From: a virus
DNA length: 64,000 bases
Direction: 5' to 3' (one strand)
IMG/VR virus record: IMGVR_UViG_3300002144_000477
Location: 96,001-160,000 of that record
A model generated the notes under the pieces. That model had not been told where the DNA came from and made no database searches. It was given only the letters and a program-made list of their open reading frames with translations. The stretch's first letter is position 1. Every line of letters begins with the position of its first letter. Positions 38,102-50,384 of the stretch are shown here, one piece after another. The position numbers and the translations under genes were made by a program.

Positions 38102-38442
38102 TAGCTATCCTTATTATACTTGTTAGTGGCTTCCCATTGTTCGTGGTTTTCTTGCAGTATATTTCTGCAGATATCGTGAAACCAGCGATCAACAATTACA
38201 GACTCATCTTCGTTTGGTTTTTGTTGATAGCCAGCTCGAACTAAGTTTGTTACAAACTTCTCATTCCAGTCTAGTTCAAACGCACCGTTGCTTGGGCTAG
38301 CTTCATCCAGTTCCACTGATAGTACAGCGATGTATGGCTCTCCATTTGCTGTTGCAATGTCCTTTGCAGACTTCTTTGGTTTAGGAGCCTCTTTTTTATC
38401 TTCGGGTTTGGGCTTTTTCTTGCCCCAATCAAATAGTCCCAT
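38101..38442 (-). CDS. hypothetical phage protein
   Basis: GGAGG SD before ATG 38442; GAFELDWN..VDRWF. Confidence 0.8.
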   Translation of the reverse strand: MGLFDWGKKKPKPEDKKEAPKPKKSAKDIATANGEPYIAVLSVELDEASPSNGAFELDWNEKFVTNLVRAGYQQKPNEDESVIVDRWFHDICRNILQENHEQWEATNKYNKDS

Positions 38443-39134
38443 TAAATGTCCTCCATATCGCAAATGCATTTGGCAATTATTTTGCCATCCGACTCAATAA
38501 AAATATCACCATCTTCGATAATACAAATGCTATCGTATGGTTTTATATTTCCAAGAAAATCTATGTTTTTAATCCGTACCTTTTTATGTACATCGTCAGC
38601 ATACTGGTAAACAAATTTTAAATAATTTGCACAATATAAAATGCCTGCCGCATTGAAGTCTATGCTTGGGTACGTTGGGTATCTGTATTTTGTGACGCCA
38701 TCTTTGTAACGTGCGCCGCGTGACTGTTTGTGACTATCCCAAAATTCTCTGTTTCGAATTCCCGACGAGTTAGCTCGAAATATTTTCCCGTGGTCGACAT
38801 GAATTCCGATACTGAAAAGTTCGGCGGAGTTTCCGCCCCAAACATGTTTGGTTTTAAAGATGTAGTCATCGATGTAATTTCCTGTTGTTGTAATGTTCAA
38901 TTCGTTATCTTCCCTATTAGGTTCATTTAATGAATAGTTGGTTCTGAGAAAACTTTGATACACTCTCATGCCGTTTACTTTTACTTTGCTAGGCTCTTCG
39001 CTCATATAATGCCAGTGCAAATCTCCTAGAATTTTGCTGACTTGATTTAGATTCAATGATCCATCAGCCAAAAGGTGCGGCATCCCCAATACGATTTTTG
39101 TTTCAACGCTTTCTGTCATTCTGTCATATTCCAC
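38442..39134 (-). CDS. double hot-dog-fold protein (LnmK/Pnap_2097-like)
   Basis: LGMPHL..GDLHW and DFNAAGILYCANY motifs; family recalled from memory. Confidence 0.55.
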   Translation of the reverse strand: MEYDRMTESVETKIVLGMPHLLADGSLNLNQVSKILGDLHWHYMSEEPSKVKVNGMRVYQSFLRTNYSLNEPNREDNELNITTTGNYIDDYIFKTKHVWGGNSAELFSIGIHVDHGKIFRANSSGIRNREFWDSHKQSRGARYKDGVTKYRYPTYPSIDFNAAGILYCANYLKFVYQYADDVHKKVRIKNIDFLGNIKPYDSICIIEDGDIFIESDGKIIAKCICDMEDI

Positions 39135-39228
39135 TGCTTCTAATCTTGTTCATTGTTTCTTCGTCCCAAACTTTAGCCTTCATCGCACGTTCATGTTGGG
39201 CATTCTTATACTCAGGTTCCCCAGGCAT
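39124..39228 (-). CDS. possible 34-aa peptide after queE
   Basis: MPGEPEYKNAQHERAMKAKVWDEETMNKIRSSGI fills the gap between queE and the next gene. Confidence 0.4.
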   Translation of the reverse strand: MPGEPEYKNAQHERAMKAKVWDEETMNKIRSSGI

Positions 39229-40084
39229 TGCCGAATATGTCCACATGTAGTCGGGGTGTGTACCTCCAACCTCGCTCCATTGCCAAAGCGGCAACTCGTT
39301 GTGCGTTTTGTTTATATTCGTCGTACCTGCCTCCGAGTGGCATAGTATAGACTGGGCAGTAGACTCCTGCCTTGGTGTACTCTGTAACTGCCTTTGCAAC
39401 CTCGTCCACGTCATCCACATGAGCAACCACAAATTTAAGATACAAGTCAGCACCAGGAATGTCGTAATAACTACGAACAATTTCAGGCTTAATAGCATCA
39501 TCCCAAGACTCTCCCGAAACAGAGAGCTTTGGACTGCAACTGAATGTAACGGTAATTTGGTCTTGATTTGCGAGATAATCAGCAAGCTCCGGTCTAATAA
39601 CTTGGGTAGCATTTGTTTCAATAGTGACATTTTTTAAATCCTTCATGCGTGGATGGTTGAATAGTTCAACGTAATTACGTTGCCATCCCAGCATCGGTTC
39701 ACCACCAGTGATAATAAAATGAATGTCCTGCCCACTTGGTAATGTCCAGCTACCAGTTGGTGTCAGTGCAAGCAATTGCTCTACTATTTCGTCAGTTGTG
39801 ACATCCTGCATAAAGTGCTTAAACTCAGGGTAGATACTTGCATAGGTATCGCACCCGGTATGCACAATTGGCAAATCATTGAACTCTTTATAGTTATCAA
39901 TGTTTTGGATAATAATTGCAACTTCTGGATTTGGAGTCTTGCTGTCATATGCCTCAGACTTGTCTCTACCAAATTTTTTGCATCTAAAGTTGCATCCGTA
40001 CATGCGAAGGAATACGCTTGGCACACCTACGTATTTTCCCTCGCCTTGAATGCTATAGAATGCTTCTGAAAAACGCCATTTCAT
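39212..40084 (-). CDS. queE: 7-carboxy-7-deazaguanine synthase (radical SAM)
   Basis: FYSIQGEG..G.PSVFLR.YGCNFRC...CDT, TGGEP, ETN, SPK, RLHVDIFGN; next to queD. Confidence 0.92.
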   Translation of the reverse strand: MKWRFSEAFYSIQGEGKYVGVPSVFLRMYGCNFRCKKFGRDKSEAYDSKTPNPEVAIIIQNIDNYKEFNDLPIVHTGCDTYASIYPEFKHFMQDVTTDEIVEQLLALTPTGSWTLPSGQDIHFIITGGEPMLGWQRNYVELFNHPRMKDLKNVTIETNATQVIRPELADYLANQDQITVTFSCSPKLSVSGESWDDAIKPEIVRSYYDIPGADLYLKFVVAHVDDVDEVAKAVTEYTKAGVYCPVYTMPLGGRYDEYKQNAQRVAALAMERGWRYTPRLHVDIFGNAWGT

Positions 40085-40088
40085 ATTT

Positions 40089-40655
40089 TTATCCTTCGTA
40101 TGTTGCAGAGTTGGCGTCGTGCTCAAACACTTCAACACTGGTTAATTTAACATTAGCACCAACACGATACCTCTGTTCAAACACTCTACCGTCAGGATGC
40201 GTCCACCCACGGCCTTCTTGGTATGCTGTTAAGATTTCCAACATTGTTCTATATGCAAGTTCTGCAAATTTTTCACAGCCAACACCTTCTACAATACGCA
40301 AATCAATTACGCCACCACGTTCATGTGGGCGAAGTTTACTAATCTCGCCAGTCCCGCTAGGCATCATTGTGCCTAGATTTGCTAGACGTTTAAACTCATC
40401 TAAAAACGGATCGTCTTGTGCAACAATCGTAGTATGATCAAATTGCCAGTCAAGCCACTCTTTAAATGCTTTTAGTCCACCAAAGTCCATAACCCAGTGG
40501 CGATCGTCAAGTGTGGGACTTTCAAACACCAGCTTAACACCGATTGAATAACCGTGTAGCGTCGAGCAGTGACTATGACTAGAACGCCATTGCCTGAATG
40601 TACAACTCAGACCTCTGTCGTTGCCATACTTTTTAGTACTATAATATTTTGTCAT
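40089..40655 (-). CDS. queD: 6-carboxytetrahydropterin synthase
   Basis: HCSTLHGY, WVMDFG, FDHT, GCE, VFEHDANSA. Confidence 0.9.
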   Translation of the reverse strand: MTKYYSTKKYGNDRGLSCTFRQWRSSHSHCSTLHGYSIGVKLVFESPTLDDRHWVMDFGGLKAFKEWLDWQFDHTTIVAQDDPFLDEFKRLANLGTMMPSGTGEISKLRPHERGGVIDLRIVEGVGCEKFAELAYRTMLEILTAYQEGRGWTHPDGRVFEQRYRVGANVKLTSVEVFEHDANSATYEG

Positions 40656-40688
40656 TGTTTCGTTTTCCCTATGTATGTTATAGGTGGC

Positions 40689-40722
40689 GGAATGTTTTAA
40701 GAGGGACGACACTAAGGCCTCT
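40689..40722 (-). ncRNA. candidate preQ1-I-like riboswitch aptamer in queD leader
   Basis: AGAGG-CCUUAGUGUCGUC-CCUCU-UAAAACAUU; loop AGUGU can pair with tail ACAUU. Confidence 0.6.
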
Positions 40723-40727
40723 AATAT

Positions 40728-41309
40728 CTATTCTATAGTATACTGGTATTTAGGCAAGTTGTCAAATACTTTTTTAACTTTTTCGATATCCTCGTGCATG
40801 TGTATACTAAACCAAATCCTTGGATCGGTAATTTTTACTTCATGCTCTTTAGTAATATTAATAATTATCGGAGTATCAGCCTGTGTCTCATAAGTGTACA
40901 CTTGGTTACTGTCTGGTTCGTAGACTACGCCTGTCCCGCTGTTATCGTGCATTGGGTAGACAAAACTACATTGCCCGTTTTTAATACTGTCACGATGTCG
41001 TGGCACGTTACTACTACTCCAGCATATGGTTGCTGGTGTGAACGTTAACTCGGGAAACGTATGATTAAAAAATTTATCAAGCAGTTCAGTTTCGGGGATG
41101 CCACCTAGTACAAAAAAATCAACGCTAGGACCGCTTTTACTAATCCACCCACCGCTGGGTATTTCACAAACTACACTAGCACCACTTTCGTATATTAAGT
41201 GATTTAAGTATTTTCCGGTGTGTACAAAATCAGTCGCTACTGTTCTAACCATCGTAGTTAGTGCATCCCAATTGTGTGCAATTTTAAATTCTGGCTGGAA
41301 CCCTAACAT
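40728..41309 (-). CDS. 2OG-Fe(II) oxygenase-like cupin
   Basis: VPRHRD ... EHEV ... PRIWFSI (HxD..H..R). Confidence 0.55.
   Translation of the reverse strand: MLGFQPEFKIAHNWDALTTMVRTVATDFVHTGKYLNHLIYESGASVVCEIPSGGWISKSGPSVDFFVLGGIPETELLDKFFNHTFPELTFTPATICWSSSNVPRHRDSIKNGQCSFVYPMHDNSGTGVVYEPDSNQVYTYETQADTPIIINITKEHEVKITDPRIWFSIHMHEDIEKVKKVFDNLPKYQYTIE
40737..40765 (-). promoter_or_regulatory. sigma70-type promoter for queD-queE, inside the 3' end of the upstream gene
   Basis: TTGACA-17-TATACT, with TAAATA in the spacer. Confidence 0.8.
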
Positions 41310-41313
41310 TGCA

Positions 41314-41856
41314 TTAATGCTCCCACGGGAACACTACCCAGACATCATTTTCTGCTTTATTAATTTCTTTTACTGAATAGTCGGTATCAAACGCACTGGC
41401 TTGGTTATCAACTATACTTGCAAAGCGAACATTCTTATGCCAAACTGTATTCCACGTTTCTTCATTGGGCAAACAACTGCTTTGCCAATCTTGTTTAATC
41501 CAGTTAAATGTAGCACCGGTATCATTGATATCATCTAGAATAAGGATATTTTTGCGTAACGAAATATCCCATCGAGCCCCAGTGATTCCTGTCTCTTCAC
41601 TTCGGTTATAACCAAATGCATCTTCGGCCATCCATAGATTGCTCTCTAAGCCAGTAATAGACCGGTCTCGCAAACTAACATCAAGTGTGTACATAGGGAT
41701 GCCGAGACAGTGACTCATTGTAACTGCTGGTATTAGTCCTCCTCTGGTCAGTCCAACAATGTAGTCAGGCCGCCAACTGTCCTTATACATATCGAATGCA
41801 ATCCGGTGAACTGCATCTTTAACAGCGATATCACTGATATATAATTTATTATCCAT
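41314..41856 (-). CDS. purine phosphoribosyltransferase (Gpt-like)
   Basis: GLTRGGLIPA, ILDDINDTGAT, WVVFPWE. Confidence 0.9.
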   Translation of the reverse strand: MDNKLYISDIAVKDAVHRIAFDMYKDSWRPDYIVGLTRGGLIPAVTMSHCLGIPMYTLDVSLRDRSITGLESNLWMAEDAFGYNRSEETGITGARWDISLRKNILILDDINDTGATFNWIKQDWQSSCLPNEETWNTVWHKNVRFASIVDNQASAFDTDYSVKEINKAENDVWVVFPWEH

Positions 41857-41857
41857 G

Positions 41858-42316
41858 TTAATTTCCTAATTTAGTTGATAGGTATTGCTCCCATTGCACC
41901 CACTTATCTTTAACCATAAACCCCCACTCACGCTGTTGTGGTCCAGGCATAAACAGTGTCCAGCAAGTTACGTCCGGATCAAGTTCGATGCGATGAAAGC
42001 TGTTAGCACTAGATACCCGAAAGTGTCCGGGCTTACGCCAAACAGCCACTTCGCAAAGTCTTTTACCATTTTTGTCATAATTTGGAATCCATTCATAGTA
42101 TCCGCCCTTTAAAATAATTGTTGCATATGGCCAGGGATGATCGTGCAGATCGTCTGGGTCTGATTTTAGAAACTTGTGCAAAAATATATTTAACGGGAAA
42201 CTCTTCCTGTCTTTTAAAAACAAGTAGTAACGTTCTAGGTACGGTTCGTTACTAGCACGGTCTAGTACAATGCGCTTACGACCTACTTTATCTAAAACTT
42301 TTAGAAACCATTTCAT
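41858..42316 (-). CDS. cupin-fold protein
   Basis: LHDHPW..GGYYE..FHRIEL..WTLF..WGF. Confidence 0.75.
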   Translation of the reverse strand: MKWFLKVLDKVGRKRIVLDRASNEPYLERYYLFLKDRKSFPLNIFLHKFLKSDPDDLHDHPWPYATIILKGGYYEWIPNYDKNGKRLCEVAVWRKPGHFRVSSANSFHRIELDPDVTCWTLFMPGPQQREWGFMVKDKWVQWEQYLSTKLGN

Positions 42317-42371
42317 AGTATTGTCCTCTTAGAAGTTAAGTTTGTATCCTACTGTTGCACGTACATTAAGT

Positions 42372-43595
42372 TCATCCATTACATTCTTCCTTTAATTTTT
42401 GCGAGACATCACTCCACAACTCGTTAAATGTTGTTGTCTTTTTTAATTCTTGTTCAATTCGATTATTAAAACTTAAAATTCTCATTGCTCGTTGTTTATT
42501 TGAAACTTTTTCAACATTCACAACATCGTTAGAAATTGGTATGCCAGTATAGCACATTTCTTTATATTTTGCTAAAGTGTCGAGAGATAAATTTTTATAA
42601 TTTTCGTATTTTGTTAAAACTTTATCTATTTCTTTTGCAGCCATTAATCGTATACTTTCAGGTGCGAATCTAATGTCTAATTCATAAGGATTAATTAAAT
42701 CACACCAAAATATATCTAAATTTTTGGATAGGCAAAAATCATAAAAATCTAATAGATCAAATGCACTATATAAACAGTACGCCGGATGAGCAATAATGTG
42801 TTGATTATGTTGTTTTAGAATATCGATGTTGTTAACAAAGGTTTTCCATTCAGCTTTATGTCTGACGTATTCAAATCGTTTTTCTAAACAATCAAAACTT
42901 ATCATCCAATGTACATTGATATTTTTATTAGAAATAATAGATTTGAACATCGGGTTATTTGTCAAATCAACACTTAAATTAGTTGTTATATGAACATTTA
43001 CATATTTAGATAAATTGTTAAACAATTTATATATCGATTTCTGTAATAGAGGTTCACCGCCACCTACGGTAATACTAGATAAATGTTCTTGATTATCTAA
43101 TAGATAATTTACGGCGTTCTCTTCATCTACTTTTCCAAGTTCAATGATTTTACCTTTGACTTTTTGCCATTCTGTACTACAATCTGGACCACAATAAAGA
43201 CAAGTCAGATTACACAAATTATTCCAATTAATGCTACAACTGGTTAATACATTTTGATCGTTATTGTCTATTAGGGCACGAACGTCGGCATCTAAACTAT
43301 TAACGTGCATCAATCGTTCACTACGTCCACCGTATGTTTCTGAGTCTTTACAATAACTACAATGATCGTGCCATTCTTCGTTTTTAATACTAGTTTTGAT
43401 TTCGGATAATAGTTTATTTTGTAAAATTTTATCCACTGGATCTTGCAAATTATTGCCTACATTTTCGCTATAAGAACAGATCCCAGTTCCTCCATTTACT
43501 CCTAATCTCAGAGAAGTCCACGGACAGGGGCAAAATGTTTTACTTTGACTGGTTTCTATGATGATTTGTATGATGATTTGTATCCTGTTTGCCAC
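42372..43595 (-). CDS. radical SAM protein with N-terminal twitch-like domain
   Basis: CNLTCLYC, GGGEP, TTN; CPCPW..ICSY..CSYC; start uncertain, GTG 43595 is the first in-frame start downstream of the promoter. Confidence 0.85.
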   Translation of the reverse strand: MANRIQIIIQIIIETSQSKTFCPCPWTSLRLGVNGGTGICSYSENVGNNLQDPVDKILQNKLLSEIKTSIKNEEWHDHCSYCKDSETYGGRSERLMHVNSLDADVRALIDNNDQNVLTSCSINWNNLCNLTCLYCGPDCSTEWQKVKGKIIELGKVDEENAVNYLLDNQEHLSSITVGGGEPLLQKSIYKLFNNLSKYVNVHITTNLSVDLTNNPMFKSIISNKNINVHWMISFDCLEKRFEYVRHKAEWKTFVNNIDILKQHNQHIIAHPAYCLYSAFDLLDFYDFCLSKNLDIFWCDLINPYELDIRFAPESIRLMAAKEIDKVLTKYENYKNLSLDTLAKYKEMCYTGIPISNDVVNVEKVSNKQRAMRILSFNNRIEQELKKTTTFNELWSDVSQKLKEECNG

Positions 43596-43605
43596 TGCAT
43601 AATAC

Positions 43606-43634
43606 ATTATACGACAAAAGAGATCAAATGTCAA
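43606..43634 (-). promoter_or_regulatory. sigma70-type promoter, perfect consensus
   Basis: TTGACA-17-TATAAT. Confidence 0.88.
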
Positions 43635-43656
43635 CCGCAGTGTGTAGGATAATGTG

Positions 43657-43687
43657 GTATTAATACAACGGTTGTATTAATACAACG
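43657..43687. repeat. compound palindrome / direct repeat, operator-like
   Basis: GTATTAATACAACG twice, containing the 16-bp palindrome GTTGTATTAATACAAC. Confidence 0.8.
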
Positions 43688-43698
43688 CCGTAGTTTAA

Positions 43699-44238
43699 TT
43701 ACTTGGCTTCGTGTCTATTCAAGTATTCCAACACAGTTTCAGGACTTGAAACGCCGTATGGGTCCACTGTAGAATTGTCACAGCGGCCTGGCTCTTCAAA
43801 GAACTGTTCAATCACACCATTATACACAATCATAGCATAACGCCAACTACGCATGCCAAAGCCTAGATTGTCTTTGTCCACCAACATACCCAATTGACGA
43901 GTAAATGTACCAGAACCATCTGGGATGAACTTTAGTTTTTCAACCTGTTGATCCAACATCCATTTACGCATGACAAATGTGTCGTTTACACTCAACACGT
44001 AAATGTCGTCTACTGCTTTAGCACAAATTTCTTCGTGATGCTGTTCAAAGCCAGGCACTTGGTATGTTGAGCAAGTTGGTGTAAATGCTCCCGGCAAACT
44101 GAACACCACAACACGACGGTTCTTAAAGATTTCGTCTGTGGTCAAATCTTGCCACTTGAATGGATTGTCGCCGCCGATGCTGTCATCGCGGACTCGTGTT
44201 TTGAATGTCACACTTGGGACTGTGATTCCTTGCTTCAT
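43699..44238 (-). CDS. peroxiredoxin (Prx5/redoxin type)
   Basis: LPGAFTPTCS, SVNDTFVM..W, PDG, GFGMRSWRYAM; AAGGAG SD. Confidence 0.95.
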   Translation of the reverse strand: MKQGITVPSVTFKTRVRDDSIGGDNPFKWQDLTTDEIFKNRRVVVFSLPGAFTPTCSTYQVPGFEQHHEEICAKAVDDIYVLSVNDTFVMRKWMLDQQVEKLKFIPDGSGTFTRQLGMLVDKDNLGFGMRSWRYAMIVYNGVIEQFFEEPGRCDNSTVDPYGVSSPETVLEYLNRHEAK

Positions 44239-44376
44239 TATTTTACTCCTTGAAATGATCAAACTCAGTGTTTCCACTGATATGTTATTGTAACAGTATT
44301 TACTATAGAAATCTACTATTATTTCATTGTTTTTTATTGTATTTTCCTATGGCATCAATTGGTATTTCCATTGGCC

Positions 44377-44399
44377 AAAAGAAACCCGCCGAAGCGGGT
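44377..44399 (-). terminator. intrinsic terminator
   Basis: Minus strand ACCCGC-TTCG-GCGGGT-TTCTTTT. Confidence 0.85.
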
Positions 44400-44417
44400 A
44401 TATCTAATTGGTATAGA

Positions 44418-46094
44418 TTAAAACTTGACGTTAAATCCAGCAGTTATAGTGGTGTTATCACCTAATGCTGATGTTGACTTGCTCAATCTAGCTTCCCAAT
44501 TCACTTTCTCGTCTTCTTTAACTAAACCTATACTAGCTTGATTTACGCCATCAGAATGATGTAACATAGTAAAGTCCACTAGACCTAAATCTACTTTGGC
44601 ACCAACCGTGGCGTAATCATACATGGTGTTTGTGTTAGCAACAGCACGAGCAGTAATAATGTCACCAGTTTCAGTGTAAGCATCAGTTTTACGTTGTCCA
44701 CTGGTGTAACCAATCACAGAAGTAACTTTATCATTTAATTTTAATTCATATGATATTCTCGCGCTAGTATCTGTACCGCTGGTGGCTCCAGCATTTGCCC
44801 AAGAACCAATGGTACGAGATAACAAGTAGTCTGATGTGACATGTGTTAGTCCTACTTCGACGGTGCCTTTTTCCAGTTCTTTGCCAATCGAACCATTAAA
44901 TATACGTGTGTCAGCACTGGCACTGTTGCCTTGATTGTTAACATTAGTTGATAATTCTGCAATGCCGCCACCGATGATAATTCCATTTTCGATACGTCTC
45001 TTGCCACCTACAGTGATGCCTTTTGTGCGTCCTTCAAGACCATTTTTATAAACATGTGAAATGCCAATGGCTTTAATACCATCAAACTCTATACCTCTAG
45101 CCACGGAGTTTGTGATGTCTTGTGCTGTAGCAAGTTGATCAATGCGCCCAACTGCTTGTGCAGTTGCTATACTAGTTTGTACCAGATCAACAGTTGAACT
45201 TGAAGTTGTTACTGTGTTAGTAGTTGAAACAGAGCAAGATTGTGTTCCGTTTGCTGTAGTAGTCGAATTATCACTGTATGTAGTAACTGTTGTAGGAGTT
45301 GTACAAGTTGTAGTTGTCACTGGCGTTGTATTAGTTACAATAGTTGTTACTGGAGTTGTGTCTACAGTAGTAACAGTAGTGTCAACTGTTTGTGTTATGG
45401 TATCTTCGCTTACTGCGTGTGCTGTAGTAACTGCTCTTACAGTTGTGCCGTTAGTTACTGTATTTGTTATCACAGTTGCGCCTGTTGAACTAGAAGAAGT
45501 AACAGTCGGGGTTCCTGCTGTTGTGCTTACTACAGTTGGTGTACCACTATATGTTTGACCTGCTGCCAATGGCGTTGTGTTTGTGTATGTATAGTTGGAT
45601 AACTTGGTTGCATCAACGCTTCTATCCATGGTGGTAAATGACGCACTATCGTTTTTGGAATAGCCTCCTTCAATAGTAATAACAGTTCCCCAGCTACCAT
45701 TACCTAGATAGAATATAGCGCCGTCGCCTAACGCTGTAAATGTACCAGTATGGTTAATAACTTTGTAAAGTGTACCGTCTGACTCGTACAAGGCTAAACC
45801 ATATGTGCCGGGGTTAGTAGTACTGTCAAAGAAAGCAAAGTATCTTCCATTGGCAGATGCATCAGCAATTTGCGCATCTGTTAGTCGTGAGGCACTGGAT
45901 GCTTGTGTAGCATAATTAACGCTGGCATACAAGTTTTGAAACCAGCTGGCATTCAGTGTTGTGCCATTCCAGCTGTATTGTACATCCCAAATTTGTGCGG
46001 TACTGAATCGACCGTCTGTAATGGCAGCAAATGCGCTGGCCATTGTTAACATTGCGGCAGCGGCCGCAGTCACGAGTTTTTTTAACATTTTCAC
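44418..46094 (-). CDS. autotransporter-like outer-membrane beta-barrel protein
   Basis: Signal peptide ..ASAFA, Thr-rich stalk, amphipathic beta strands, YTETG, C-terminal AGFNVKF; AAGGAG SD. Confidence 0.8.
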   Translation of the reverse strand: MKMLKKLVTAAAAAMLTMASAFAAITDGRFSTAQIWDVQYSWNGTTLNASWFQNLYASVNYATQASSASRLTDAQIADASANGRYFAFFDSTTNPGTYGLALYESDGTLYKVINHTGTFTALGDGAIFYLGNGSWGTVITIEGGYSKNDSASFTTMDRSVDATKLSNYTYTNTTPLAAGQTYSGTPTVVSTTAGTPTVTSSSSTGATVITNTVTNGTTVRAVTTAHAVSEDTITQTVDTTVTTVDTTPVTTIVTNTTPVTTTTCTTPTTVTTYSDNSTTTANGTQSCSVSTTNTVTTSSSTVDLVQTSIATAQAVGRIDQLATAQDITNSVARGIEFDGIKAIGISHVYKNGLEGRTKGITVGGKRRIENGIIIGGGIAELSTNVNNQGNSASADTRIFNGSIGKELEKGTVEVGLTHVTSDYLLSRTIGSWANAGATSGTDTSARISYELKLNDKVTSVIGYTSGQRKTDAYTETGDIITARAVANTNTMYDYATVGAKVDLGLVDFTMLHHSDGVNQASIGLVKEDEKVNWEARLSKSTSALGDNTTITAGFNVKF

Positions 46095-46142
46095 AACTCC
46101 TTATTATTGTTATTATTGTGTGAATCTGTGTATTTATCAGTC

Positions 46143-46167
46143 AAAAGAAAACCCGCCTAAGCGGGTT
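46143..46167 (-). terminator. intrinsic terminator
   Basis: Minus strand AACCCGC-TTAG-GCGGGTT-TTCTTTT; near copy of 44377..44399. Confidence 0.85.
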
Positions 46168-46187
46168 ATCGTGTGCGTATGGTTGAG

Positions 46188-46487
46188 TTAAAATTTAAGT
46201 GATTCCATGGTGATAATTTTACTAATCTCTTCACCTAAATCAACATCATCGGTAATAATGTAATTGTCACCTGTGGATCTGTCAGTTCTATTATCGTAGC
46301 GTCTAGTGCTGACAATAAACCCACCATTGGCCTTGGTCAGTGTAAAACGCATGGGCTCGCCAAAGGTTTCAACATCGTCGCAAGATACTAAACTGCCCCT
46401 CGACAATTTCGATTGGTAGGCATCTGCATCTGGTTTTTCATTGGGATCACGAACCCAATCGCGTAGTTTTCTTTTAAGCCATTTCAT
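46188..46487 (-). CDS. hypothetical phage protein
   Basis: GGAG SD, coupled ORF. Confidence 0.75.
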   Translation of the reverse strand: MKWLKRKLRDWVRDPNEKPDADAYQSKLSRGSLVSCDDVETFGEPMRFTLTKANGGFIVSTRRYDNRTDRSTGDNYIITDDVDLGEEISKIITMESLKF

Positions 46488-46876
46488 GTTTTAATCTCCG
46501 TGATTAACAACGGGCCATACATAGTTGTTTCGCACTCCTCGAATGACCAGCCTGCTTCCTCGAATGCCGCAAACCCGTCGTTGTCCCACATTTCATCTAC
46601 TTCTGCAAGCAATAATTGATCACCGTCTGTATTAAAATCCAGTGAAATGCCATCATCCATTTCTTGGTCTTGGATAGCGTAGTCGTCTAGATCGAATCCA
46701 AACTCATTGGTTGAATTATATTCAACGTCGAACTCTTGATCGTCTTCAACTTCGATGATCGCATGTCCCCGCCGCCAAAGTTGATCTACATAAAAAATGC
46801 GACCGTCAGGGTGTGTCCATGTTTCGACTTGCTTAATACTTTTTTTATCTTTAGGTTCAATTTTGTATAATTTCAT
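46484..46876 (-). CDS. acidic hypothetical protein
   Basis: ATGA coupling to the folE stop. Confidence 0.75.
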   Translation of the reverse strand: MKLYKIEPKDKKSIKQVETWTHPDGRIFYVDQLWRRGHAIIEVEDDQEFDVEYNSTNEFGFDLDDYAIQDQEMDDGISLDFNTDGDQLLLAEVDEMWDNDGFAAFEEAGWSFEECETTMYGPLLITEIKT

Positions 46877-47559
46877 CGTGGTGCAAACTCTTGTTGTAGT
46901 TTGATGTTGTCAAAGAACTCTTTCTTTGTATTGCCGTCTGTATTAAATGCCCCTTTTAGTACAGTAGTCTGTGTTAACGAACTATGCGCCATAATGCCAC
47001 GATTTTCACAACAACCATGTGTTGCTTGAATGTAGACTGCTACGTTTTCACTGTCGGTTGCCTTCATAATCTCACGAGCAATGTCGTTACAAAGTTCTTC
47101 TTGTAGTGTGCCGCGACGAGCACACCACTGTGCAATACGTGTATACTTCGAAAGGCCGATTAGTTTTTCTGCCGCAATAATGCCAATATAAGCAACCCCA
47201 GTAACGGGTTGGTGATGATGACTACACATACTACGAAGTTCACTGCGAACCACGAGCATGCCTTCGTAACGGTCTGCCGAATCATTTGGAAATGCTGTTG
47301 CGTCTGGTGCTGGTTCATATCTTCCTGCCATTATTTCGTTAAAGTACATTTTAGCAAGACGTCTTGCAGTGCCTTGACTGTTAGGATCATTGTAACGATC
47401 AATTACTAGTGCATCTAGTACACTGTTAAATGCTAATGTAGCTTCGTCAATAAGTTGTTCTTTATCGCCTTCTTGTAATACTGTACTGATGTTATCACCA
47501 GCCCAGTGACGAATGCCATATTTTTCTAGTTTTGTTTTAATTTCTTGTGCTTTACTCAT
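46873..47559 (-). CDS. folE: GTP cyclohydrolase I
   Basis: TARRLAKMY, SMCSHH, IGLSKY.RI, LQE, HGCCENRG. Confidence 0.95.
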   Translation of the reverse strand: MSKAQEIKTKLEKYGIRHWAGDNISTVLQEGDKEQLIDEATLAFNSVLDALVIDRYNDPNSQGTARRLAKMYFNEIMAGRYEPAPDATAFPNDSADRYEGMLVVRSELRSMCSHHHQPVTGVAYIGIIAAEKLIGLSKYTRIAQWCARRGTLQEELCNDIAREIMKATDSENVAVYIQATHGCCENRGIMAHSSLTQTTVLKGAFNTDGNTKKEFFDNIKLQQEFAPR

Positions 47560-47645: not shown

Positions 47646-48230
47646 TCAGCTATCAATCCAAATAAGTTCTTTCCCATTTGGGTATGTTTTATATTCAGGA
47701 ATAGGATTCACATAGGGTAGTTTATCTAGACCCAACTTAGCTAGTTCAGGTGTGGGCCGCATGTGGTACGCAATTTTAGGGATAGGATGATTCTGCCAGG
47801 GATTAACTGATAAATCTCTTCCGTCATACCGTTGCTTAATAACAGTACTATAAAACTGTTCGTCGTCGGTTAGTATAGCGCCACCCCAACCAAGCTCAAG
47901 GGGCTTACCGAATCCAAAACTTAAACATTGTAGGGTCCCGGCACGATACATGTTAGGTGCAAGTAGCCTAGCACTATCCCATATCCTGGTATTGTTAAAT
48001 TGATATTCACCGACCCATTCGTCGTCAGTTAACTCGTATACAATGCCTAGACGATGCATTAGTTGGTGTATGCTAAGGTAGGTATACTTAGAATAACTAG
48101 TCATACTAACTCCGTCGTAGCGCAAACACAACTCTAGTGCATTAGTGCAACAATCAGTCATAATTGCATACGGAGCACCAGTATGCTTTGCGAGAGTGTC
48201 TTCAAACGCTTTAATTAATTCAAATGCCAT
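47646..48230 (-). CDS. short (194 aa) DegT-like PLP-fold protein
   Basis: FEDTLA..DCCTNALEL, WDSA, LSFGFGKPL..GGAILTD, RYDGR. Confidence 0.75.
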   Translation of the reverse strand: MAFELIKAFEDTLAKHTGAPYAIMTDCCTNALELCLRYDGVSMTSYSKYTYLSIHQLMHRLGIVYELTDDEWVGEYQFNNTRIWDSARLLAPNMYRAGTLQCLSFGFGKPLELGWGGAILTDDEQFYSTVIKQRYDGRDLSVNPWQNHPIPKIAYHMRPTPELAKLGLDKLPYVNPIPEYKTYPNGKELIWIDS

Positions 48231-49206
48231 TTTGTACAGATTCTTCTGCAGAGATGTTATACCAATCCCACGCACTTGAAACAATTTGATCAACTGAGCT
48301 GTGCATTGGCATCCAACCTAACATTTTCATTGCTTTGCTACTGTCTGCAATTAGTAAGTCGGGGTCGCCTTCTCTACGTGGGCCGGCTTTGATGTTAACT
48401 GGCCCAATGTTGTTAACTACATAATCAATGATTTGTTGATTACTAATACCGGTATTAGTACCTAAGTTAAACGCCTCTGCACCATTTGCACTATACTTAG
48501 TAGTGGCAAGTAAGTATGCACTAGCAATATCGTTGACGCTAATGTAGTCGCGAATACAAGTCCCGTCCGGCGTATTGTAATCGTTGCCGTTTAATGTGAA
48601 GACACTGTCTTTTATTTTTGATTCTAGGATTCTAGCAATGATATGGGTAGCACCATGCGCTTGTCCTAAATCCTTACTAGCGCCTGCCGCATTAAAATAC
48701 CTAAAGCTAATACTATTCAATCCGTATGCACTATAATAGTCTTGCAAAATGCGTTCAATTATAGCCTTAGTTGATCCATATGGACTCATTGGGTTAATAG
48801 GCGAGTCTTCTGTAATAGGAGTTACTTTAGGATTTCCGTATACACTTGCGCTACTACTAAACATAAATGTCGGCAGTTGCCCTTTACATTGCTCAACGAT
48901 AGCACGTAAGAAGTTGATGGTTCCACGTACATTATTAGTATAGTATTCGTCGGGATTCATGACACTCGGACCTACTAAACTAGTACCCGCACAATGCACA
49001 ACAACATCTGGTTTTACCTGTGCTATGTATTTGGACACTAATGTATAATCACCGTAGTCTGCCTTCAATATCTCATCATGGTATTGCCTTGCATTGGTGT
49101 TAGTAGTTTCGCGGTCGATGCCATACACTTTCCAACTAATGCTATTAAATGCTTTAGCAATATTGCTACCAATGTAGCCGTTGCTTCCGGTGATTAGTAC
49201 GTTCAT
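48220..49206 (-). CDS. galE: UDP-glucose 4-epimerase
   Basis: TGSNGYIG, SSASVYG, YGSTK, RYFNAAGA, TPDGTCIRDYI, RREGDP. Confidence 0.9.
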   Translation of the reverse strand: MNVLITGSNGYIGSNIAKAFNSISWKVYGIDRETTNTNARQYHDEILKADYGDYTLVSKYIAQVKPDVVVHCAGTSLVGPSVMNPDEYYTNNVRGTINFLRAIVEQCKGQLPTFMFSSSASVYGNPKVTPITEDSPINPMSPYGSTKAIIERILQDYYSAYGLNSISFRYFNAAGASKDLGQAHGATHIIARILESKIKDSVFTLNGNDYNTPDGTCIRDYISVNDIASAYLLATTKYSANGAEAFNLGTNTGISNQQIIDYVVNNIGPVNIKAGPRREGDPDLLIADSSKAMKMLGWMPMHSSVDQIVSSAWDWYNISAEESVQNGI

Positions 49207-49208
49207 AA

Positions 49209-50384
49209 TTAGTATTTCTCTTCTGACACAAAGTCTCTATATCGATTACCTGCACGATTCCACTGCTCGCCGTTGCCTTGCATAATATCAACCATACGGT
49301 TAATAGTACCATCGGTCCAGTTACTAATTTTGCCTATGTTGGCATGAGGCTCGCTCAACAACTTTTCTAGTTTCGTTTCTGCATCTGACAGGCTCCATGG
49401 AATATAAAGTCGTTCTGCGTCATTTGCAAAAGTTTCCGGGAAACTGCGGTACGCAGGATATAACACGTTACAGCCAAGGGTGTCTGCTTCACTTACCGTA
49501 TTTGACACCCAGTCTTGTAATGCACAGTTAAACAACACCTTACTATCGTTGACGATATTATAGTAATCATTTTTTTGCAAGTCTTTATATATCTTTAACT
49601 TACCGTCGGCTTCCATCTTTAAAGCACGGTCCAAGTACTTTTGATTATTACTGCGTAACGGGCCACCACTTAGCACTGCAAATTCAACATCTGGACGAGC
49701 TTGCTTGAATCGTTCTATTAGATCCATAAAAAAGTCTGGTTGCTTTTCTTGATCAAACCGTGCGGCAAATACAACCCTATCGCTACGTTGATCCCACGGC
49801 TTAATCTTATTATCAACCCGACCTCGGACTTCTTCTTTACTAAAGCTCAGACCGCTAATGTTGTAAATCGGAGCAGTCCAGTTTGCAATTTTCATATGTG
49901 CTACCATTTCTTCGTTAGTAGCAAGAATATTAACATTAGGAATTTCGTTGCACATTTGCTCGTACAAACTCATCCACTTGCCCATACCCCATACGTGAAC
50001 AAAGTCGTCGGGATCGACTGCTTGTGCTAGACATCGCAAGTAAATAGTTGGGCGTTGTTCTTCGGGAATCTGGCACATGATGTACGGCAAAGATTCGATT
50101 CCCGGTTGAAACATATCCTCGAAGAATACCACATCGCCACCGCCGCATTCGCCGCTTCGCATCATCTGCACTAAATTCATTAACTGACTCATACCAAAGT
50201 AGCTACGTCCGTGTGCATCTAATACTTGACCGACACTAATTGCCTTAGTGTTGTCGATAGTGCTTCCGGGCACTACAACATAGTCGATTCCGCGTTGCTT
50301 AAACACACGCTCGCTCCACTCTTGTAGTTGCAAAGTGTATCGACCTTCGTACGGCTCAAGGCCCATATAAAAAAGTTTTTTCAT
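49209..50384 (-). CDS. GT-B (GT4-like) glycosyltransferase
   Basis: VVFAARFDQEKQP, FNCALQDWVSNTVSEA..LG..YP. Confidence 0.8.
   Translation of the reverse strand: MKKLFYMGLEPYEGRYTLQLQEWSERVFKQRGIDYVVVPGSTIDNTKAISVGQVLDAHGRSYFGMSQLMNLVQMMRSGECGGGDVVFFEDMFQPGIESLPYIMCQIPEEQRPTIYLRCLAQAVDPDDFVHVWGMGKWMSLYEQMCNEIPNVNILATNEEMVAHMKIANWTAPIYNISGLSFSKEEVRGRVDNKIKPWDQRSDRVVFAARFDQEKQPDFFMDLIERFKQARPDVEFAVLSGGPLRSNNQKYLDRALKMEADGKLKIYKDLQKNDYYNIVNDSKVLFNCALQDWVSNTVSEADTLGCNVLYPAYRSFPETFANDAERLYIPWSLSDAETKLEKLLSEPHANIGKISNWTDGTINRMVDIMQGNGEQWNRAGNRYRDFVSEEKY

Follow-up and report, generated by a model that had tools for sequence, protein, structure and literature searches.

Genes and promoter around the queD leader

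The DNA analysed here, referred to as the window, is a stretch of 64,000 nucleotides belonging to a 170,893-b IMG/VR virus record that is 49% complete according to CheckV. A queD-like gene lies on its minus strand (40089..40655, with its ATG at 40655) and encodes a 188-aa PTPS/T-fold protein of the SHCxxxHGY subtype (Pfam PF01242, 9.6e-15; phrog_2389 'QueD-like', 7.6e-34). It can be aligned with the proteins annotated as QueD in phages ACP17 and BUCT-ZZ01, and reaches 35 bits with the NCBIfam QueD model, for which the cut-off is 89. The QueD subfamily linked to the leader motif described below carries CxxxHGY in place of the signature CxxxHGH (alignment A4), and the QueD reaction is putative for it. 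A queE-like radical SAM gene follows on the same strand (39212..40138; phrog_2076 'QueE-like', 3e-52) and is matched by NCBIfam QueE models (1e-9 to 6.5e-14), none of which reaches its cut-off. The longest queE ORF overlaps the end of queD, and the true queE start is probably located further in. Just after queE, a 230-aa ORF (38442-39134, minus strand) exhibits a weak, below-cut-off match to the LnmK-family acyltransferase/decarboxylase model TIGR04098 (1.1e-10); speculatively, a decarboxylase beside a CDG synthase would fit 7-deazaguanine formation.

Upstream of the motif, a cluster on the minus strand (41314-47559) includes FolE (46873-47559) and a purine-type phosphoribosyltransferase (41314-41856). 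Its other members are a 558-aa protein of no assigned function, a peroxiredoxin, a twitch radical SAM protein and a cupin assigned to a 'cysteine dioxygenase' PHROG. NAD-dependent epimerase/GDP-mannose-dehydratase-like and glycosyltransferase genes are found near this deazapurine cluster (48220-50384, minus strand). Searches of the window's record for QueC, TGT and QueF gave no match, and QueC and TGT were likewise missing from three jumbo genomes that carry the motif and are near-complete (349, 358 and 283 kb). The absence of QueC, on which the preliminary description had relied, is therefore borne out both in the record and in near-complete relatives. QueE is present in all three jumbo genomes, and a phosphoribosyltransferase is located near it in two of the three as well as in one 59%-complete relative. 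No transglycosylase was detected here, in a search that could overlook divergent ones. A neighbour gene in ACP17 without annotation, phrog_10773, which at a guess might be the transglycosylase, had no match anywhere; since the controls were likewise without a match, this negative carries no information.

Since these phages are without QueC and QueF, preQ0 and preQ1 are not their own products, and the pathway gene content supports the earlier suggestion that preQ1 is unlikely to be made by the phage itself. Together with QueD and QueE, and given the lack of QueC and TGT, the cluster resembles a 7-deazapurine nucleotide route and not the usual preQ0/DpdA system. Tubercidin biosynthesis follows a nucleotide-level route through a phosphoribosyltransferase, and by analogy the phage pathway might do the same. 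Certain phages that encode FolE, QueD and QueE, and no QueC, make 7-deazaguanine DNA via DpdL and DpdA3 (Cui et al. 2023, PMC10516641).

The TTGACA-17-TATACT promoter proposed earlier for the minus strand is present, with a −35 box at 40765-40760 and a −10 box at 40742-40737 that together match 11 of 12 sigma-70 consensus positions around a 17-nt spacer. Judged from this promoter, the transcript should start at ~40730, 8 nt before the first helix (P1) of the motif, and at many related loci TTGACA/TATAAT precedes P1 by the same distance. The promoter itself is located inside the 3' end of a 193-aa ORF of no assigned function (stop at 40730-40728, minus strand). A scan of the window found no terminator-like site within 40000-41400, and transcription attenuation was rejected as the mode of control.

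A covarying pseudoknot upstream of queD

The leader contains a compact H-type pseudoknot of 39 nt (40684..40722, minus strand). The covariance model R1 scores it at 45.2 bits, which is a score on a training member, since the window sequence belonged to the R1 training alignment. P1 is formed by AGAGG (40718..40722) and CCUCU (40700..40704), and the hairpin loop between its strands comprises 13 nt (40717-40705) with C40705 as the last base; the A-rich tail after P1 reads UAAAACAUU. All of these elements are present as first described. The loop is divided into L1 (CCUUA, 40713..40717), the 5' strand of the second helix, P2 (GUG-U-CG, 40707..40712), and L2 (UC, 40705..40706). Following P1, the A-rich L3 (UAAAACAUUC, 40690..40699) leads to the 3' strand of P2 (CG-C-CAC, 40684..40689). 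In P2, the variable GUG (G40712, U40711 and G40710) pairs with C40684, A40685 and C40686, and past a conserved U40709.C40687 mismatch the helix is extended by the conserved CG, as C40708-G40688 and then G40707-C40689.

The pairing first proposed for the pseudoknot, AGUGU with ACAUU, is complementary in the window, but its columns are paired in only 53.5% of cells over 110 homologous leaders, and its middle pair forms in 1 of the 110. On these pair counts that register was rejected and the GUG-U-CG/CG-C-CAC register kept. Folded alone, the 96-nt leader has a minimum free energy of −8.7 kcal/mol (z=+0.54), no better than its shuffles. The structural significance of the element thus comes from cross-phage comparison only, the single-sequence fold being at chance level.

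Two kinds of sample were used for this comparison. In the QueD-first sample, IMG/VR was searched with the QueD-like protein, which returned 80 loci at 65-73% identity; 75 of them have the motif, in single copy and directly upstream of queD, and it was not seen upstream of queD in the other five. With two motif-first pattern scans of IMG/VR added, the total rises to at least 278 instances and at least 203 distinct sequences. The search patterns required several of the 'invariant' bases, so that the bias-free evidence consists of the QueD-first set and of the three A of L3, which are invariant in alignment A1, where the pattern left them free. C40705 is invariant in both A1 and A3; because the patterns required this C, its invariance is informative only in the QueD-first sample, where all 75 loci with the motif (of 80) have it.

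The resulting consensus joins strongly constrained and freely varying segments. P1 reads NGNGG/CCNCN. L1 begins with a conserved N-C-U followed by 0-8 nt, giving a variable length of 3-11 nt, and the 5' strand of P2 consists of 3-7 variable nt and then U-C-R. L1 and this strand together span 7-17 nt (203 distinct sequences, among the matches listed). L2 is N-C, L3 is N-W-A-N-A-N-A-Y-U-C with three invariant A at alternate positions, and the 3' strand of P2 is Y-G-C followed by 3-7 variable nt.

Covariation in the queD leaders of related phages had been proposed as a check on the structure, and both helices were found to covary. In alignment A3 (110 sequences), P1 plus P2 is paired in 91.3% of cells, compared with 70.1% in shuffles, and has a covariation score of 0.556 vs 0.171 for shuffles and at most 0.165 for slid registers; both-sided changes are seen at 8 of the 12 pairs. 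Three G-C pairs of P1 are invariant across the 110 leaders, and the middle pair is AU in 51, CG in 33 and UA in 26, with none unpaired. Five variable P2 positions show 4-6 standard pair types each (A3). For P2 alone, in the gapless alignment A2, 87% of cells are paired vs 60% in shuffles, with a covariation score of 0.758 vs 0.256.

One further covarying pair, unexpected and tertiary in appearance, joins the third base of the UC(A/G) before L2 to the base before the conserved GC of the tail. This pair, which flanks L2 and L3 and corresponds to 40707-40689 in the window, is G-C in 62 sequences and A-U in 47 (A3), and it is never non-Watson-Crick where the search left both positions free. It divides the motif into an A-U class (UCA...UCUGC) and a G-C class (UCG...UCCGC), to which the window belongs, and its covariation indicates that P2 continues through the invariant U.C mismatch. 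These results establish a conserved, covarying structured RNA in the phage queD-queE leader, tied to a gene of the 7-deazaguanine pathway, and in this respect the preliminary description was correct.

Association with queD and distribution

The link of the motif to queD is exclusive. A QueD-like ORF is located directly downstream in 156 of 157 copies of the first combined set and is directly next in 111 of 117 copies of the second motif-first scan, both among the matches listed. In every exception with enough sequence, again among the matches listed, one small gene separates the motif from QueD; the intervening genes encode a cupin, a methyltransferase-like protein, a canonical CxxxHGH T-fold paralogue or an unassigned protein. 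By comparison, QueD was found downstream of none of 38 chance core matches. With the covariance model R1, the window's record and each of five large relatives gave a single motif copy, and none of these six sequences has a second copy before queE, folE or the phosphoribosyltransferase gene. The other gene neighbours of queD vary widely, and queE is non-adjacent at most motif loci, which indicates that the RNA and queD travel as one module.

Individual loci illustrate this variety. At L002, L005, L013, L020, L023 and L295, queD lies not beside queE but beside genes for UvdE, DAHP/KDO8P-synthase-family proteins, cytidylyltransferase, or glycosyl- or methyltransferases, and in G012 queE and the phosphoribosyltransferase gene are 62-65 kb from queD. 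At two loci (L308:6231-7172 and L137:196-621) the first gene after the motif encodes a canonical CxxxHGH T-fold protein of 141 aa; in L308 the phage-type SHCxxxHGY QueD comes next, so that tandem paralogues lie under one leader.

The motif was also searched for outside uncultured phages. A class-specific pattern covering the class of the window was run on one genome per species for 185,579 bacterial and archaeal species (GTDB) and gave four matches, only one of which is real. This match (L206:1261-1308, 55.9 bits), with QueD downstream, is in a Haliscomenobacter sp. MAG (NZ_JBBAKG010000058.1), on a 39-kb contig that is a binned phage contig or prophage and that hints at a possible host. Among 50,697 GenBank phage records, blastn with two motif leaders returned chance matches only, and a megablast of the locus against GenBank phages gave no match. 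The closest cultured QueD genes, those of BUCT-ZZ01 and ACP17, are within operons in which upstream genes overlap or abut queD, therefore leaving little or no room for a leader, and the covariance model detected no motif copy at the BUCT-ZZ01 locus. The motif thus appears, from these database searches, to be confined almost wholly to uncultured phage contigs. Literature searches found no published description of it; the 'phage-encoded riboswitch' of PMC9004378 is a glutamine riboswitch.

Expression platform and interpretation

In the window, an SD-like AGGGA (40666..40670) is located 10 nt before the AUG, a spacing that is long for an SD. The hairpin CCUAU-AACAUAC-AUAGG (40668..40684), which had been proposed to cover this site, is present, with CCUAU at 40684-40680 and AUAGG at 40672-40668, but it covers the site only in part and is weak (−3.7 kcal/mol, z −1.42); 20 of 200 shuffles fold equally well. 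Some relatives have a stronger homologue of this hairpin, CCUAUG/CAUAGG, which is one of three unrelated platforms, the others being UGUCAUC with GAUGGCA over the AUG and ACUCC with GGAGU over the SD. In all three, the 5' arm starts inside the P2 3' strand or beside it. This strand is 15-35 nt upstream of the SD, and it overlaps the anti-SD arm or, depending on the platform, the anti-AUG arm. Riboswitches typically combine a conserved aptamer with varied expression platforms.

The P2 3' strand and the SD region are predicted to pair over 3.23 nt vs 1.57 nt in shuffles, and 99 of 116 distinct leaders exceed their own shuffles; these statistics come from simple folding without pseudoknots, and their p-values are inflated because the leader sequences are related. 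When the P2 3' strand was blocked in the folding models, the SD plus AUG opened up in 65 of the 116 leaders and closed in two. In the window, SD plus AUG are predicted to be mostly open either way (0.77 vs 0.87 with the P2 3' strand blocked), and C40684 is the sole base common to P2 and the occluding hairpin; the small predicted effect there follows from the weakness of this hairpin. Overlap of the P2 3' strand with the anti-SD arm indicates ON logic, and the models as a whole suggest a translational ON switch in which knot formation would free the ribosome-binding site. The switching direction, which we infer from the models, is the least secure step of the mechanism. An ON switch on a biosynthetic gene would be unusual and would need a feed-forward or demand signal.

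The queD leader thus combines a conserved, covarying aptamer-like core, a variable platform and a link to one pathway, the general marks of a riboswitch. We consider it most likely, with a probability of roughly 60%, that the leader RNA is a riboswitch of a new phage-borne class built on the preQ1-I plan. In the proposed mechanism, a small ligand with a guanine-like face would stabilise P2 by binding between its bottom and the top of P1. Candidate ligands are a 7-deazapurine or pterin intermediate of the route GTP -> H2NTP -> CPH4 -> CDG, or host preQ0/preQ1. The P2 3' strand also begins the helix that masks the SD or the start codon, so that formation of the knot would release the ribosome-binding site and turn queD translation on. 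A fuller version of this reading, to which we give somewhat short of an even chance, holds that the new class senses a 7-deazapurine or pterin metabolite other than preQ1 (e.g. CDG, 7-deazaguanine, CPH4 or dihydroneopterin triphosphate) and turns on translation of QueD, the committing enzyme, in phages without QueC or a detected transglycosylase, which may make 7-deazapurine nucleotides via the phosphoribosyltransferase.

To our knowledge, phage-carried riboswitches are rare, and the known ones are copies of bacterial classes; if the proposed riboswitch is real, its class is one seen almost only in phage contigs. 7-Deazapurine chemistry is used by phages to hide their DNA from restriction, and the candidate switch would govern entry to 7-deazapurine synthesis. 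Its small size (~40 nt), clear covariation and three natural platforms make it directly testable, and the identity of the ligand would reveal which signal is read before a GTP-derived pterin is committed to deazapurines.

Alternatives and comparison with known RNAs

The preQ1-I riboswitches (RF00522; e.g. B. subtilis queC, T. tengcongensis and E. coli yhhQ) are, like the motif, small H-type pseudoknots of ~35-45 nt. Types I-III have a G-C-topped P1, pyrimidines after P1, a C at the end of L2 and an A-rich L3, and the 3'-terminal cytidine of L2 is the specificity base that pairs with preQ1 (PMC10622847). The motif likewise has a 5-bp P1 topped by conserved G-C pairs, conserved pyrimidines that open L1, an invariant C (C40705) that ends L2, adjoins the P1 3' strand and has a putative role in binding, and an A-rich L3 suited to the P1 minor groove. 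As in preQ1-I, the gene under candidate translational control belongs to the queuosine/7-deazaguanine pathway. The preQ1-I-like layout given in the preliminary description holds up to this extent, and the motif could accordingly be a true but very divergent preQ1-I subtype that binds host-made preQ1 or preQ0 in the same pocket, formed by the L2 C, an L1 U and the L3 A. We regard this as unlikely.

Membership of the preQ1-I family, for which the Rfam PreQ1 model had been proposed as a test, found no support there, with no RF00522 match at E<=10 on leaders of 131-401 nt. At the gathering score, Rfam 15 gave nothing at the motif in a search of the whole window, and at E<=10 it gave nothing on 40500-40900, on the 131-nt leader of L005 or on the motif in ten related loci; no model of preQ1-II, preQ1-III, THF-I/II, SAM-II/V or other Rfam 15 families matched the motif in the sequences searched. 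Since no Rfam family matches, nothing ties the RNA to a known ligand. Its anatomy differs as well. In preQ1-I, 4-5 conserved A directly precede the P2 3' strand (PMC10622847), whereas L3 of the motif has A at positions 3, 5 and 7 followed by an invariant Y-U-C, with no poly-A run abutting P2. The P2 of the motif comprises 6-10 pairs (a conserved C-G, the R-Y pair, the conserved U.C mismatch and then 3-7 variable pairs) rather than 3-4, and L2 is only 2 nt. L1 starts with the conserved N-C-U but has a variable length of 3-11 nt; that of preQ1-I has 1-3 nt and a conserved, ligand-contacting U. While the P2 of preQ1-I includes or abuts the SD (OFF), the SD here lies outside P2, and the P2 3' strand overlaps the anti-SD arm. 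A further difference is the occurrence of the motif almost only in uncultured phages, to which the absence of QueC and QueF makes preQ0 and preQ1 foreign products. From its sequence, the leader RNA seems to work like a preQ1-I-type aptamer rather than being a demonstrated member of that family.

Proteins could also recognise such an element. The 5'-leader pseudoknot of T4 gene 32 mRNA, also from a phage, sets downstream translation via cooperative protein binding, and the queD motif could similarly be a translational operator for QueD autoregulation or for another phage regulator. Conserved single-stranded bases and a pseudoknot would suit protein recognition equally well, and the element always accompanies queD, whose product could be the partner. 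However, the core is kept across diverse phages and QueD proteins (down to 38% identity) while the platform changes, and the element is located upstream of the ribosome-binding site instead of covering it. No T-fold enzyme is known to us to bind RNA, and the T4 leader has no link to a metabolic enzyme and no sequence likeness to the motif. Such an operator is quite improbable in our view.

A structure that acts without a ligand, i.e. a constitutive translational enhancer that keeps the anti-SD strand away, a 5'-end stabiliser, an RNA thermometer or an ion sensor, would be consistent with the position of the element at the very 5' end of the predicted transcript and with the freeing of the SD by knot formation in the models. 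It would, however, leave the link to a single enzyme gene unexplained, and the ~15 unpaired positions that are invariant over hundreds of sequences are more than a passive structure needs; this explanation is still harder to credit. A functionless chance hairpin beside the promoter, for which the single-sequence fold at the level of shuffles might have spoken, is refuted by conservation and covariation in at least 203 distinct sequences.

The preferred reading, a new riboswitch class on the preQ1-I plan, can also be set beside other small regulatory RNAs. SAM-II, SAM-V and guanidine-III riboswitches are likewise H-type pseudoknot aptamers, comparable in size and acting at translation initiation, but they differ from the motif in conserved nucleotides, gene associations and ligands, and none matched it in Rfam. 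The THF-II (folE motif) riboswitch controls a neighbouring step of the GTP-to-pterin route and binds a ligand with a 2-amino-4-oxo face; it is a bacterial hairpin with internal loops found upstream of folE, whereas the queD motif is a pseudoknot, likewise without an Rfam match. With the preQ1-I riboswitches the motif shares its overall plan, and the identity of its ligand would reveal the extent to which the preQ1-I fold can be adapted.
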